From IMG/VR virus record IMGVR_UViG_3300007775_000157, positions 1-64,000 of that record: a stretch of 64,000 nt of DNA; one strand, written 5' to 3'. Below the pieces are notes generated by a model, which worked only from the letters and a program-made list of their open reading frames with translations, searched no databases and was not told the origin of the DNA. Of this stretch, positions 25,656 to 34,657 are shown in pieces. The position numbers and the translations under genes were made by a program. This DNA comes from a virus. Each line of letters begins with the position of its first letter. Positions within the stretch are counted from its first letter, which is position 1.

Positions 25656-25964
25656 ATGACAATAGAAGATGCTAAAAGAAAAGTAGACGAAATTATTAGG
25701 TCGAGTGGAACAACACATCCAAAGATTTCAGTAGTGCAATTGGCTGGTATAGTTAAATATCTTATAGGCGCACTAGATAGAATCAAAATGCCGAAAACGA
25801 CTGTGCTTAGTACGCTTCCATATGACAAGGTTGAAATTGATCCACAAAATCAACTTAATAGAACTCCACCTTTGACCCCAGATAGAAAAAGATATTTTGA
25901 TCAACCAAACAAGGATGGAAAAGAGGAAAATCCACTTCCTCCGATCCCACCGGAGACAGAATAA
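25656..25964 (+). CDS. Hypothetical protein, Pro-rich C-terminus
   Basis: GGAG RBS; TAATG coupling to ligase. Confidence 0.55.
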   Translation: MTIEDAKRKVDEIIRSSGTTHPKISVVQLAGIVKYLIGALDRIKMPKTTVLSTLPYDKVEIDPQNQLNRTPPLTPDRKRYFDQPNKDGKEENPLPPIPPETE

Positions 25965-26929
25965 TGTGTCAAATAAAAGAACATACGTGTGATGTCGTAC
26001 GAATCAAACTTGAGAATCATCCAAATGCAGATGCGCTTAGCATAGTACATGTTAAAGATTTTCAATGTGTTGTAAAAACATCTGATTGGAAGGATGGGGA
26101 GTTGGCTGTGTACATCCCCCCAGACAGCGTTGTTCCGAACACAAAACCGTTCGATTTTCTCAACGGTAATACAAGGATCAAGGCGAGAAGACTTCGGGGG
26201 GAATGGTCTATGGGATTATTGGTCCCAGCCCCAGACGGAGCTAAGGTGGGCGACGATTACATGGAGTGGATGGGTATTACACACTACGATCCTCCGATTA
26301 AGAGCCATTTTTCTACTGGGGGAGATAACACAAATGCGCCACCAGGGTTTATCCCAAAATATGACGTTCTGAATTTTCGAAAATACGCGCAAGTATTTCA
26401 GGATGGAGAAGAAGTTGTCGTGACAGAAAAAATTCACGGAGCAAATACTAGATTTGTTTGTCACAACGATCAAATGTTCTGTGGATCAAGGAACAACTGG
26501 AAAAAAGAAGACCCTAATAATCTATGGTGGAAAGCTTTGAATCAAAATCCAGCGCTCGAAGCATGGCTAAGACGCAATCAGGATTATGTAGTTTACGGGG
26601 AGATTTTCGGGAATGTTCAAAGTCTAAAATATGGTGCTACAAATGGTCAAATATTTTTCGCTGTTTTTGATATCATGAAAAATAATCAATGGCTTGACTA
26701 CGACGAAGCACACGAGATAGGTAAACCTTTGACTTGGGTTCCGTTGGTTTTTCGTGGTCCATTTAACAAAGAGCAAATACTTGAGTTTGCCGAAGGCGAT
26801 AGCATCTGGCCAGAAGCCAATCATCATGCAGAAGGTGTTGTTGTAAAGCCTGTGAAAGAGAGAACAGAAAGAAAAATAGGCAGAGTTCAGTTGAAGGTAG
26901 TAGGGAATAGATATTTGAGCAAAAGTTAA
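25964..26929 (+). CDS. ATP-dependent RNA ligase, DRB0094/Rnl5-like
   Basis: N-terminal HPNADALS OB-like module; motif I TEKIHGAN; YGEIFG, FAVFDI, EGVVVKP, LKVV. Confidence 0.88.
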   Translation: MCQIKEHTCDVVRIKLENHPNADALSIVHVKDFQCVVKTSDWKDGELAVYIPPDSVVPNTKPFDFLNGNTRIKARRLRGEWSMGLLVPAPDGAKVGDDYMEWMGITHYDPPIKSHFSTGGDNTNAPPGFIPKYDVLNFRKYAQVFQDGEEVVVTEKIHGANTRFVCHNDQMFCGSRNNWKKEDPNNLWWKALNQNPALEAWLRRNQDYVVYGEIFGNVQSLKYGATNGQIFFAVFDIMKNNQWLDYDEAHEIGKPLTWVPLVFRGPFNKEQILEFAEGDSIWPEANHHAEGVVVKPVKERTERKIGRVQLKVVGNRYLSKS

Positions 26930-27231: not shown

Positions 27232-27271
27232 TTTTTTTGGAGAAATCCAGCAAAAAAGATTATATTAGTTT

Positions 27272-27344
27272 GCCCCTGTCTTCTAGAGGCCTAGGATGCT
27301 GGTTTTTCATGCCGGTGACGCGAGTTCGAATCTCGCCAGGGGTA
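27272..27344 (+). tRNA. tRNA-Glu(TTC)
   Basis: Acceptor GCCCCTG/CAGGGGT; anticodon arm CTGGT-TTTTCAT-GCCGG; GTTCGAATC T loop; no encoded CCA. Confidence 0.92.
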
Positions 27345-27360
27345 TTTTGAAAGGGGAAAA

Positions 27361-28796: not shown

Positions 28797-29165
28797 ATGA
28801 AGATTTTTATACTAGAAGACGACCCCAATAGAATGAAGACATTCAAGAAAGCCTTGTCTGGGCATTCAATAGACCATGCGACCAACTGCGAAGAGGGAAG
28901 AACAATAGTATCGTCGAACACCTACGATCTTATCTTCCTTGATCATGACCTGGGAGGGGAGCAGATGGTAGATTCTTCTCACGAGAATACTGGTTATCAA
29001 TTGGCTAAATTCATGAAAGAGAACGGATACAACACCGAAGTCCCATGTATTGTTCATTCGTGTAATCCAGACGGGGCAGATAATATAGCATCCCTTTTGT
29101 GTCATGCTGTTAAAATCCCTTTCCCTTTTATAGATTTTATTAAAGTGTTATCGTATTTTGGGTAA
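28797..29165 (+). CDS. Stand-alone receiver-fold protein, cyclic-phosphate-processing type
   Basis: ILEDD..R, FLDHDLG, TGY, IVHSCNP.GA. Confidence 0.75.
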   Translation: MKIFILEDDPNRMKTFKKALSGHSIDHATNCEEGRTIVSSNTYDLIFLDHDLGGEQMVDSSHENTGYQLAKFMKENGYNTEVPCIVHSCNPDGADNIASLLCHAVKIPFPFIDFIKVLSYFG

Positions 29166-31512: not shown

Positions 31513-31818
31513 ATGAAAATTCTATTAGACATAGATGATACCGTCTTTATTCGTGGCGATCTTCATCCTTCTTGGTCTGATTTCGTGGAATTGGTAAAGA
31601 GAGAAGATTATCGTGTTGTTGTGTGGTCCTCTAACGAAGACGGCTTGGCTATAGCAAAACTTATGGGATTTGATTTTGTGTCTAAAAATGAATATGATTC
31701 ACATCCATTAGCAAAGGTGTTAATAGATGATTGCTGCGACTTAAATAAACAATGTTGTCGAGTGGAAGAAACATTCGAATCCTTGGATAGCTTTATGGAA
31801 AAATACGACAGAGTGTAG
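31513..31818 (+). CDS. Minimal HAD-superfamily phosphatase
   Basis: LLDIDDT motif I, VVVWSS motif II, LIDD motif IV. Confidence 0.65.
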   Translation: MKILLDIDDTVFIRGDLHPSWSDFVELVKREDYRVVVWSSNEDGLAIAKLMGFDFVSKNEYDSHPLAKVLIDDCCDLNKQCCRVEETFESLDSFMEKYDRV

Positions 31819-31884
31819 CTCAACTGGCTTTAGAGCGCCTGGTCTGGAGCCAGGAGGCTGGGGGTTCGAGTCCCTCCACTCTGA
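31809..31884 (+). tRNA. tRNA-Pro(TGG), atypical anticodon loop
   Basis: CAGAGTG/CACTCTG-A acceptor; CCTGG-TCTGGAG-CCAGG; GGTTCGAGTCC; overlaps end of HAD gene. Confidence 0.82.
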
Positions 31885-31898
31885 TTGATGTCGATATT

Positions 31899-32279
31899 TT
31901 GGATGTAGAAACAATGGATTTATCTTGTGTGCATACTTTTATATGGGACATGCAATCGCGGGGTATAGACCCCAAAGATGTCGCCTATCTTCTGGTAAAT
32001 GACGATGATTACATAGATTTACTCAAAGATTATCAAGGGAAAAATTTTGCTCAAACCACCTTTAGTTCTTCGTCCGATTTCGTATTACATGGAATACCAA
32101 TTATAAAAAGTCCAGTGGTCGGTAAGGCAGAAATCTTTACAGTGATGAAAGATATGATAAATACATATGGAAACAATGCAATATTCCAATACGATATTCC
32201 TCCTGTAGTCCCGACCAACAAAAAACCAGAACAACAAGAAAAAAAACAAAAATCAGACAAGAGAATAATAAGGCTTTAG
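31899..32279 (+). CDS. Hypothetical protein
   Basis: ORF between tRNAs; start uncertain. Confidence 0.5.
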   Translation: MDVETMDLSCVHTFIWDMQSRGIDPKDVAYLLVNDDDYIDLLKDYQGKNFAQTTFSSSSDFVLHGIPIIKSPVVGKAEIFTVMKDMINTYGNNAIFQYDIPPVVPTNKKPEQQEKKQKSDKRIIRL

Positions 32280-32350
32280 GGGAGGTAGCTCAATGGGAGA
32301 GCATCGGCTTTGCAAGCCGGAGGTTGCGGGTTCGAGTCCCGTTCTTTCCA
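32279..32350 (+). tRNA. tRNA-Ala(TGC)
   Basis: G3:U70 acceptor pair; TCGGC-TTTGCAA-GCCGG; GTTCGAGTC. Confidence 0.92.
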
Positions 32351-32352
32351 TA

Positions 32353-32433
32353 CCCCTGGTGGCGGAATGGCAGACGCGACGGTCTTAAAAGCCGTTGTCA
32401 AAAGACGTGTAGGTTCGAGTCCTACTCAGGGGA
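32353..32433 (+). tRNA. tRNA-Leu(TAA)
   Basis: CCCCTGG/TCAGGGG-A; ACGGT-CTTAAAA-GCCGT; long variable arm GTC-AAAA-GAC. Confidence 0.92.
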
Positions 32434-32451: not shown

Positions 32452-32934
32452 ATGGCAACAGAACTAGCCTTGGCAAAACAATCAATGAATAAAACTATTT
32501 CTATTCTAAGAGAAAGAACGACGGGAATAGACAACAATGTCAACGATATACTCGTATCTACGGTATTCGTTTCTATAAATGGACAAAAAACAGCACTGAA
32601 AGAACTTAGTGCAATAAACCAAAATACGAAAACAAGGACAATAAGTATTATACCATATGACAGGACTATGTTACCAGAGATTACCAAAGAATTGATCCGG
32701 CAGGGATTTGACGCCTATCAATTTTCTCCAACAAATATATCTGTCAATATACCTTTGCCGTCTGGCGAAAACTACAAGAAGGTTCTTGCGCATATTAAAA
32801 GTCTTGGAGAAGAAGCCAAAGTAGCAATTCGGAATATTAGACGTAAGTATATGAAAAAATGCGACAGAGAAGAACTTCAGAAAGTAACCGATAATTCTAT
32901 AAATAGAATAGACGAAATAATAAAAAGAACTTAG
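32452..32934 (+). CDS. frr: Ribosome recycling factor homologue
   Basis: ISIIPYD...I.KEL, I.VNIPLPSGE, GEEAKVAIRNIRR, LQKVTD..I..IDE. Confidence 0.85.
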   Translation: MATELALAKQSMNKTISILRERTTGIDNNVNDILVSTVFVSINGQKTALKELSAINQNTKTRTISIIPYDRTMLPEITKELIRQGFDAYQFSPTNISVNIPLPSGENYKKVLAHIKSLGEEAKVAIRNIRRKYMKKCDREELQKVTDNSINRIDEIIKRT

Positions 32935-32949
32935 CAGACTGGAGATTGT

Positions 32950-33153
32950 ATGACTAAGAAAGCGTATAGTTTTGGAGATAATAGATTAAAGAGAATTACA
33001 AGATTTTTGTATAAGTGGTTGTTCTGTGCGTGGTTACACAAAAAGAATCGTTGTAGTCCTTCTAATCCAAAAAGTTGGCATTGCACCAAGTGTCATCCGT
33101 GTGGAGAAGAATTTGATTTGGTTTCAGGAAACAAGAGAATGAGATGGTTATAA
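32950..33153 (+). CDS. Hypothetical Cys/His-rich protein
   Basis: GGAG RBS; HCTKCHPC. Confidence 0.5.
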   Translation: MTKKAYSFGDNRLKRITRFLYKWLFCAWLHKKNRCSPSNPKSWHCTKCHPCGEEFDLVSGNKRMRWL

Positions 33154-33159
33154 TTGTTT

Positions 33160-33262
33160 GGGCTGGTAGCTCAATGGGTAGAGCGTCCTGCTATTCCGAT
33201 GATGGCTCGTAAGAGTCAGCTTAGGTTCAGGAAGGTTGCGGGTTCGAATCCCGTCCAGCCAA
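33160..33262 (+). ncRNA. tRNA-like RNA with 37-nt structured anticodon region (intron-containing tRNA or tRNA mimic)
   Basis: Canonical acceptor, D arm, anticodon stem TCCTG/CAGGA, variable loop and T arm, but 37 nt (33191-33227) in place of a 7-nt loop. Confidence 0.85.
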
Positions 33263-33392
33263 TTTAAAACACACAAAGTAAACTAGAATAGAACAAAAAA
33301 GGAAATTGCAGTTAGTAAAATACTAAGTATAGCATTTACTGTAGTCTATTTTAGAACTTACATTATGGAAAGTTGTCTATACGGGGTTTAAT

Positions 33393-33590
33393 ATGGATAA
33401 AATAGAACAAAATGTTTTGGATGGATTAATGGTAGCGTGGAATAACTTTGTTAAACTAAAATCAACACATCCAGACGACTTAAACGACTTTCGCAGATCA
33501 TTGCATGAATGTGAGCGTATTATTGGTATGCGACAATTAAGAAAAATTGATCCAGATAGGTGGATAACTTTAGAAAATGTTGATGAATGA
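33393..33590 (+). CDS. Hypothetical phage protein
   Basis: AWN.F..L...HPDD...F motif; ATGA overlap with ligase. Confidence 0.6.
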   Translation: MDKIEQNVLDGLMVAWNNFVKLKSTHPDDLNDFRRSLHECERIIGMRQLRKIDPDRWITLENVDE

Positions 33591-34657
33591 ATGTTATGGA
33601 TCATATGAACGCATATATCAAAGAGAGAGACGATTACGTAACTAGGGGATTGCTCAGATGCGACGATCTCGATGATCTTAGAGTCTATACATATACTAAC
33701 TCGTGCAAACATTGGGATTACATTACTATGAACAGCAGAGGCATAATTGTTAATAGGAAAACAGGTGAGATAGTATCGCAACCCTTTCCCAAGTTTTTTA
33801 ACATGGGCCAAAGACAGGAGACTCAAGAACATAACCTCCCCTGGCACGAAGGTTTTAGAATTTTTGAAAAATGTGACGGATGGCTTGGAATTTTATATAG
33901 ACATAACGGGCAGTATAAAATAGCTACGAGAGGGTCTTTCAAGAGTACTGGGGCTTTATGGGCTACTAAGATTCTTAATGAATGTTATCGTCTAGATGGT
34001 TTACCAGACGAAGTAACTTTGTTGTTTGAACTTATATCTCCGTTAACTAAAATAGTTGTAGATTATGGGCAACGAGAAGATTTAGTTTTACTAGGAGCAT
34101 ACAATAGACATACAGGAGAAGAATACCAATGGGACCAAGTACAGTCGTGGGGAGAAGAGTTCGGATTCCTCACTGCAAATTCGTGGCCGAAAGAGTATCT
34201 TGGATATTGTAGGGGACTTCTAAAATCTAAACCAGGAAATGAACTTGAAGGGTTCATAATTCGTTTTGCTAATGGTCTTAGAATAAAAATAAAATCAGAA
34301 GACTACTTTAGAAGAAGTAAGATTTTACAACAAATAAATCCGCTTGGTATCTGGGACATAATGCAAAATGGTAATTTACCAGAATATATCTGGAATATGG
34401 TTGATAAGGACTACCACGAAGATATCGAGAAAATATATCATACTCTTGCATCCAGATATCGGACCATAAGAGAAGAAATAGATAATCAATACAAGGTTTG
34501 CACAGGTGCTTCCAGTAGAAATGTTTTTGCTAAAATAGCTAAAACAATGTCCCATGCACCAGCCATGTTTTGTCTCCTAGACAAACAAGACAACAAAGTG
34601 GATGAATATATTATGAAAAAGATACGACCCAAAAATAATATTTTGGAGAACGAATAA
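33587..34657 (+). CDS. T4 Rnl1-family RNA ligase
   Basis: SRGIIVN, PFPKFFN, motif I EKCDG, IATRGSF, LLFELI, EGFII, KIKSEDY. Confidence 0.9.
   Translation: MNVMDHMNAYIKERDDYVTRGLLRCDDLDDLRVYTYTNSCKHWDYITMNSRGIIVNRKTGEIVSQPFPKFFNMGQRQETQEHNLPWHEGFRIFEKCDGWLGILYRHNGQYKIATRGSFKSTGALWATKILNECYRLDGLPDEVTLLFELISPLTKIVVDYGQREDLVLLGAYNRHTGEEYQWDQVQSWGEEFGFLTANSWPKEYLGYCRGLLKSKPGNELEGFIIRFANGLRIKIKSEDYFRRSKILQQINPLGIWDIMQNGNLPEYIWNMVDKDYHEDIEKIYHTLASRYRTIREEIDNQYKVCTGASSRNVFAKIAKTMSHAPAMFCLLDKQDNKVDEYIMKKIRPKNNILENE

Follow-up and report, generated by a model that had tools for sequence, protein, structure and literature searches.

An uncultured soil phage encodes a tRNA-shaped RNA whose 7-nt anticodon loop is replaced by a structured arm of 37 nt, leaving an RNA without a usable anticodon that is unable to read codons. 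The gene lies in a stretch of 64,000 nucleotides (hereafter the window), which is part of a 77.5-kb IMG/VR record with a CheckV completeness of 46%, and it sits within an island of RNA-repair and translation genes. In the sequence collections that we scanned, the insert is at present a singleton and specific to this lineage. We tentatively read the RNA as a working, non-decoding tRNA mimic of lineage-specific origin, an interpretation that we hold to be somewhat short of probable.

The RNA scored 50.3 bits (cut-off 29 bits) with the Rfam tRNA model RF00005, which it matched from end to end (model positions 1–71). With the same model, the window's four ordinary tRNAs reached 49.4–67.1 bits, so the score of the RNA falls within their range; in the alignment, 35 nt of the anticodon loop were treated as inserted. 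The gene is composed of the following parts:

33160–33262 (+), tRNA-shaped RNA gene of 103 nt without an encoded CCA (Rfam RF00005 and RNAfold).
33160–33166 (+), 5′ strand of the acceptor stem, GGGCUGG, paired to CCAGCCA at 33255–33261, with A73 at 33262 (sequence and fold).
33169–33184 (+), D arm, GCUC / AAUGGGUA / GAGC, with G18 and G19 (Rfam alignment and fold).
33186–33190 (+), 5′ strand of the anticodon stem, UCCUG, in perfect pairing with CAGGA at 33228–33232 (fold).
33191–33227 (+), segment of 37 nt that replaces the 7-nt anticodon loop, starting with CUAUU and ending with UU (Rfam alignment and fold).
33196–33225 (+), putative irregular helix of 13 steps: C-G, C-G, G.A, A-U, U.U, G-C and A.G, then a 6-bp stem (fold and sequence).
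33203–33208 with 33213–33218 (+), apical 6-bp stem, capped by GUAA at 33209–33212 (minimum-free-energy fold).
33238–33254 (+), T arm, GCGGG / UUCGAAU / CCCGU (Rfam alignment and fold).

The minimum-free-energy fold of the whole RNA (RNAfold) was a cloverleaf with an extended anticodon arm (−39.3 kcal/mol, z = −2.2), comprising 6 of 7 acceptor pairs, a D stem of 4 bp, a perfect anticodon stem of 5 bp and a T stem of 5 bp. The sole unpaired stem position is 1:72, where G1 faces A72. Positions of the tRNA core were also present, including U8, A14, A15 with U48, G18, G19 and the T-loop UUCGAAU. Within the insert, RNAfold formed a CC/GG step, a 5×5 internal loop, a 6-bp stem and the GUAA loop; when the arm was folded alone (z = −2.4), 3 of 200 shuffles folded equally well. 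The 5×5 loop may itself be ordered as G.A, A-U, U.U, G-C and A.G, which would produce a near-continuous 13-step helix stacked on the anticodon stem. The apical stem includes a G.U pair, which is neutral in RNA and a mismatch in a DNA palindrome. The tRNA shape with its 37-nt structured arm, the GNRA-capped insert on an irregular helix and the G-A mismatch at 1:72 had all been described in the first-pass annotation, and the RF00005 score, the fold and the sequence bear them out.

The cloverleaf thus scores as a tRNA, but where a canonical tRNA has a 7-nt loop that includes U33, the anticodon and, at position 37, a purine, this RNA has its 37-nt loop, and ARAGORN at its default settings did not call the gene. 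Nor does the RNA belong with tmRNAs, as the tmRNA mode of ARAGORN returned nothing and no tmRNA was among the Rfam matches kept for the tRNA clan. The CCA is absent from the gene, as it is from the neighbouring tRNA-Ala, the one tRNA checked in this respect. An 801-nt stretch around the gene was found with zero differences in contigs of two soil-metagenome runs from two studies. Both of these are DNA runs, and no RNA run holding the stretch was found. Because both may be sources of the record, they are not independent and exclude only a one-off assembly error.

The surroundings of the gene are rich in functions related to RNA repair and translation. Its neighbours in the window include the following:

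25964–26929, second RNA ligase, an Rnl with a PHA02142 OB domain.
27271–27345, tRNA-Glu(UUC).
28797–29165, cyclic-phosphate-processing receiver domain.
31809–31884 (+), tRNA-Pro(UGG), with the loop UCUGGAG (C33 for U33 and A37 for G37) and otherwise good stems (57.7 bits).
32279–32350 (+), tRNA-Ala(UGC).
32353–32433 (+), tRNA-Leu(UAA).
32452–32934 (+), ribosome recycling factor (RRF) homologue of 160 aa, inside the tRNA cluster (Pfam PF01765, E = 3.8e-20).
32950–33153 (+), Cys-rich ORF of 67 aa that ends 6 nt before the tRNA-shaped RNA, without a family match.
33393–33590 (+), ORF of 65 aa that overlaps the start of the Rnl1 gene and matches phrog_13916, a small family labelled 'DNA ligase'.
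33587–34657 (+), Rnl1-type RNA ligase of 356 aa (Pfam PF09511 RNA_lig_T4_1, E = 3.1e-20).

Further members of the island are DUF6899, an HD protein and a DUF4326 plus SLOG protein. The order around the gene is therefore Pro(UGG), Ala(UGC), Leu(UAA), RRF, the 67-aa ORF, the tRNA-shaped RNA, the 65-aa ORF and Rnl1. The ligase, which the initial reading of the sequence had placed 325 nt downstream, indeed matches PF09511 and starts at 33587; 1,237 homologues of it were found at E ≤ 1e-10. Searches of IMG/VR for loci with RRF and Rnl1 as single-protein queries did not find close relatives. The phage is AT-rich (38.6% GC), and its retained tRNAs match the favoured A-ending codons CCA, GCA, UUA and GAA. 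AAA is used 36.5 times per thousand codons, and the 46%-complete record has no working tRNA-Lys. The spacer downstream of the RNA (33263–33392) was not notably structured (z = −1.2), and no promoter or terminator stood out beside the gene. We also observed a 15-nt word, TA(G/A)AATAGAACAAAA, twice within 115 nt on the plus strand, at 33284–33298 just past the RNA and at 33398–33412 at the start of the 65-aa ORF. With up to two mismatches it has six matches in the window compared with 1.3 expected, and it may be a regulatory word of the phage.

To assess the origin of the tRNA body, we compared the locus with 80 IMG/VR and 80 metagenome loci centred on Rnl1 homologues (31–66% protein identity). 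In the nearer relatives, a tRNA cluster surrounds the ligase and has the recurring order Pro(UGG), Asn, Ala(UGC), Leu(UAA), ..., Tyr, Lys(CUU), Lys(UUU) and Rnl1, and four loci (L200, L202, L212 and L213) share the order Lys(CUU)-Lys(UUU)-Rnl1. By comparison of these gene orders, the RNA occupies the slot of the relatives' tRNA-Lys(UUU). A covariance model of the RNA gave its top scores to the Lys(UUU) genes of relatives (57.6, 55.9 and 54.5 bits), with one Arg(CCU) and one Gln scoring similarly. Across 178 distinct tRNAs of the loci, the acceptor stem agreed best with Lys(UUU) of L202 and Arg(UCU) of L005 (13 of 14 positions each) and with Lys(UUU) of L200 (12 of 14), whereas the 154 that were not Lys(UUU) agreed at 5.4 of 14 positions on average. 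The 5′ strand GGGCUGG is identical in the tRNA-Lys(UUU) of L200 and L202. Taken together, the acceptor stem, the model score and the gene order suggest that the body was most likely derived from the tRNA-Lys(UUU) that relatives keep just upstream of Rnl1; an origin from Arg(UCU) is less likely.

Other parts of the gene resemble the tRNA-Ala of the window. The near-identity of the D and T arms to this tRNA, reported in the first-pass annotation, was confirmed at 17 of 19 positions over 8–26 and at 21 of 22 positions over the variable loop and T arm, and both genes have the leader word ACAAGAGAAT 22–29 nt before their start. A simple Lys origin is hard to square with this Ala-like T arm, variable loop and leader, or with the equally good fit of the Arg(UCU) acceptor. 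We read the gene as one of Lys(UUU) type (less likely of Arg(UCU) type) whose arms were homogenised with those of its neighbour; a chimeric origin is equally possible. Alanine identity follows the G3.U70 rule, and for this RNA it is ruled out by G3-C70. The Lys(UUU) genes of relatives (L200:2861–2935, L202:1667–1740, L212:222–297 and L213:4431–4503) share with the RNA the slot upstream of Rnl1, a class-I body and a 5-nt variable loop, but they have a CUUUUAA or CUUUUAC loop and a G1-C72 pair where the RNA has its 37-nt hairpin and A72, and they lack its Ala-like T arm. A scan of IMG/VR with the 5′ half returned 22 matches, which were mostly ordinary Lys, Ala and Phe tRNAs, with no ancestor with an empty site among them.

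The insert itself had no counterpart in any collection scanned. It was absent from all 160 related Rnl1 loci. The covariance model, run over the 80 IMG/VR loci, 50 of the 80 metagenome loci and five related records (complete or partial), found only ordinary tRNAs of up to 91 nt. Scans of IMG/VR for the exact 27-nt insert and for the motif plus T-loop each gave 0 matches; megablast and blastn (with a 151-nt query for the latter) against 50,697 phage records gave no match; and blastn-short of the arm against 279 loci gave chance words only. A motif scan of one genome per species (185,579 species) yielded 64 matches, none of which was tRNA-like. The first-pass annotation had named absence of the insert from reads or relatives as evidence against its reading. 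As far as these data reach, the insert is indeed absent from relatives.

Two resemblances within the insert were considered and rejected. A partial duplicate of the D arm (GCUC...GAGU) was dismissed since the repeat alignment was carried by the T arm, with the insert part near chance, and a likeness of the CCGAU/UUAGG steps to loop E of bacterial 5S rRNA was not accompanied by a 5S match in Rfam.

Long inserts in tRNA shapes are nevertheless a recurrent kind. In at least 117 phage stretches in IMG/VR (loci L083–L199), 45–75 nt separate the D arm GGTAGAGC from the T arm GGTTCGAATCC, and recurrent insert families among them include one with ACAGCAA, one starting with GGTGCAGGGATGCGAAATAGAAGC and one with CATGGTGAAGGACC. 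Another long-insert shape, with an insert of ~50 nt, is found in L299. None of the insert families of these 117 or more stretches resembles the insert in the window, suggesting that the RNA described here is an isolated new variant of a recurrent kind.

Irregular tRNA-like genes also occur near Rnl1 in relatives. In the closest relative (L201, 64% Rnl1 identity), an 87-nt tRNA-shaped gene just downstream of Rnl1 (L201:6153–6239, +) scores 49.9 bits with the Rfam tRNA model and is not called by ARAGORN. Its anticodon arm is doubled, with a 4-bp outer stem, a 3×3 internal loop and a 5-bp stem with the loop CUUAUGUA; the inner stem-loop resembles the anticodon stem-loop of tRNA-Ile(UAU). With this gene, the phage group shows a second kind of arm extension, unlike the first. 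Between Rnl1 and the 87-nt gene lies an element of ~97 nt (L201:6054–6150, +) that is closed by a 7-bp stem, GACAGCG/CGCTGTC, and in which two hairpins, GGTTCGAATCC and GGTTCGATTCC, resemble T arms; it was called by neither Rfam nor ARAGORN. In the same locus, the tRNA-Tyr immediately preceding Rnl1 (L201:4893–4976, +) has the anticodon AUA, with A34, compared with GUA in relatives, and the RNA in the window likewise has an A at the position of the wobble base. In L202, an 82-nt 'Pro(GGG)' near Rnl1 (L202:2877–2958, +) has a mismatched T stem and a long variable region, and a 93-nt tRNA-like gene, also near Rnl1 (L202:832–924, +), is labelled by ARAGORN with a four-base anticodon (gtgg).

Two of the explanations put forward in the first-pass annotation, a protein-spliced intron and a Y-RNA mimic, found little in their favour. 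As an intron-containing pre-tRNA, the transcript would lose ~30 nt to a host or phage endonuclease and be sealed by Rnl1 or by the ligase at 25964–26929 into an unorthodox working tRNA, for example tRNA-Pro(AGG). With introns allowed, ARAGORN does return tRNA-Pro(AGG) with a 30-nt intron after U33, the island has two RNA ligases and a cyclic-phosphate-processing domain, and small unexplained introns are on record in phage tRNAs (PMC6784885). The tRNA-Pro(UGG) of the window, with its UCUGGAG loop, also violates the U33 and G37 rules, suggesting that unorthodox loops may be tolerated here. However, when we enumerated all single excisions that leave an anticodon arm of 17, 18 or 19 nt, the 7-nt loops obtained were UUAGGUU, CUAGGUU, CUAUGUU, CUAUUUU, CUAUUCU and CUAUUCC. 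Every product has A34 and a pyrimidine (U or C) at position 37, with only AGG, AUG or AUU as the anticodon; the earlier observation that no 30-nt excision gives a purine at 37 therefore stands. The body and acceptor are not Pro-like either (2 of 7 acceptor positions shared with the tRNA-Pro of the window). By inspection, the arm has a 5/2 loop and a 5×5 loop rather than the two 3-nt bulges 4 bp apart of a bulge-helix-bulge, and neither tRNA_int_endo (PF01974) nor RtcB (PF01139) was present in the 77.5-kb record, which is 46% complete. All 160 related loci carry Rnl1, yet in none of them does an interrupted tRNA occupy the slot, which argues that the ligase is not there to serve the insert. Self-splicing introns are much larger than 30 nt, and the insert falls far below that size. 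The introns in tRNAs of Lak megaphages (Devoto et al. 2019, PMC6784885) are similar in being short anticodon-loop inserts below self-splicing size. In those tRNAs, regarding the insert as an intron allows a type and an anticodon to be assigned, and mostly identical introns turn up from one cohort to the next (PMC6784885), whereas here excision leaves no canonical loop and no second genome has the insert. We consequently regard splicing as quite unlikely. A Y-RNA-like partner of Ro60/Rsr, with the Ro-binding helix at the place of the anticodon, is far less likely still. UCCGA in the insert is similar to a portion of the Ro site of vertebrates, GGUCCGA (quoted in PMC4201824), and YrlA RNAs are tRNA mimics that are present in some phages (PMC4201824). 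They are non-decoding, have tRNA-like D and T arms and a Levitt pair, and serve as substrates for the enzymes that process and modify tRNAs (Chen et al. 2014, PMC4201824), and in their lack of decoding, their arms and their Levitt pair they are like the RNA described here. Yet cmscan of 33060–33400 with E values up to 10 returned the tRNA and chance-level others but no Y_RNA or YrlA match, and UCCGAUG agrees with the YrlA motif GNCGAA(N)G (PMC4201824) at just 5 of 7 positions. In topology the RNA is the reverse of YrlA, whose acceptor end is closed and whose opening lies on the anticodon side, whereas the ends of this RNA are at the acceptor stem, and TROVE/Ro60 (PF05731) is absent from the 46%-complete record, with control genomes giving the expected matches; a Ro60 copy in the host is conceivable. 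With neither the intron nor the Y-RNA interpretation supported, what stands is an RNA that is tRNA-shaped, does not decode and is specific to its lineage, encoded within an island of RNA-repair and translation genes.

A recently disabled tRNA gene is a serious possibility, if one that we consider a little harder to sustain than a working RNA. An insertion or rearrangement would have destroyed a Lys- or Arg-type anticodon loop in a lineage that is shedding tRNAs, and the rest would be intact for want of time. The absence of the insert from the 160 related Rnl1 loci and all collections scanned is consistent with this, as are the lack of a usable anticodon and the G1-A72 mismatch, which could be a first sign of decay. 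The window has 4 ordinary tRNAs, compared with up to 17 in relatives, and is without the Asn, Tyr, Val and Lys(CUU) tRNAs that relatives keep, suggesting that gene loss is under way; other degenerate tRNA-like genes, such as L202:2877–2958, lie near Rnl1 in relatives. Moreover, the insert exists in one sequence version, so it offers no covariation and no sign of selection. Against a disabled gene, the tertiary core and each of the four helices are intact and the RNA scores as well with the model as its working neighbours do, which argues instead for a working mimic, as does an arm that forms a helix coaxial with the anticodon stem, includes a G.U pair and folds better than shuffles, rather than random sequence. 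Changes are also unevenly spread. Starting from the Lys loop CUUUUAA, the insert and at least three loop substitutions are needed, and the loop flanks depart from any canonical loop at several sites, while a single change disturbs a stem in the otherwise almost untouched 66-nt body; such a concentration in the loop resembles remodelling around a preserved body more than even decay. Phage genomes usually delete useless DNA quickly, which also tells against a dead gene. The setting, with two RNA ligases, a receiver domain, an HD protein and RRF, and the heavy use of AAA without a working tRNA-Lys in the record likewise favour a working mimic.

If the RNA is such a working mimic, the phage would have remodelled the 7-nt anticodon loop of its own class-I tRNA gene; in its place, an irregular hairpin of 37 nt with a GNRA cap would stack on the intact anticodon stem. 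The gene would be transcribed together with the tRNA and RNA-repair island and the transcript trimmed by RNase P and 3′ processing, with the CCA presumably added post-transcriptionally, as for the neighbouring tRNAs. The product would be a stable RNA that is unable to decode and, because the anticodon is a major identity element for LysRS, is probably not charged by this enzyme. Its likeliest job would be to occupy a factor that binds tRNA bodies. An obvious candidate partner would be a host nuclease directed at tRNA-Lys or another tRNA-targeting defence, in which case the RNA would complement repair by the ligase.

A decoy without an anticodon, the remaining proposal of the first-pass annotation, is possible and fits this context. 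In its specific form, in which a tRNA-Lys(UUU) was turned into an anticodon-less body that acts beside Rnl1 repair as a competitive inhibitor or decoy of a PrrC-, RloC- or PARIS-like nuclease or of another defence factor binding tRNA bodies, we consider it rather unlikely. T4 Rnl1 repairs tRNA-Lys cut by PrrC, and PrrC recognises the anticodon stem-loop. AriB of PARIS, which cleaves host tRNA-Lys and which phage T5 escapes through a resistant tRNA-Lys of its own, is likewise reported to recognise the anticodon stem-loop (PMC11464382). As the loop is missing here, this recognition presents a real difficulty for a decoy mechanism. Phage tRNAs with changes in the anticodon loop have been proposed to evade such nucleases (PMC10264068). 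Such nuclease-resistant phage tRNAs (PMC11464382; PMC10264068) are similarly of tRNA-Lys type, have an altered anticodon stem-loop and come from genomes equipped for tRNA repair, but their anticodon still works and they stand in for the host tRNA that is cleaved, whereas the RNA described here cannot decode.

A different parallel comes from stable RNAs of well-known phages. The species 1 and 2 RNAs of T4 and RNA1 and RNA2 of T5, encoded in the tRNA clusters of these phages, are stable tRNA-like RNAs whose function is not known; at ~120–140 nt they are longer, and none is a full cloverleaf in which just the loop has been exchanged. Like them, the RNA described here lies among phage tRNA genes, has tRNA-like ends that would be expected to allow processing and does not decode, although it has no sequence similarity to them (blastn, 151 nt, 50,697 phage records). 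If it works, it may, by analogy, act like these stable RNAs of T4 and T5.

The case is made from one sequence and is suggestive only, and its meaning differs with the reading. If the gene is merely freshly broken, it is a record of the erosion of a tRNA set in a phage lineage. If it works, it would be one more case in the long-standing riddle of the stable tRNA-like RNAs that phages encode in their tRNA clusters. Defences that cleave host tRNAs, including tRNA-Lys, are now known to be opposed by tRNAs of phage origin. A body of tRNA-Lys type that has given up decoding, encoded beside a ligase of the family that in T4 repairs cut tRNA-Lys, would, if true, point to a second, RNA-based route against such defences, and should the decoy reading hold, the RNA would be an anti-defence factor that evolved from a tRNA.
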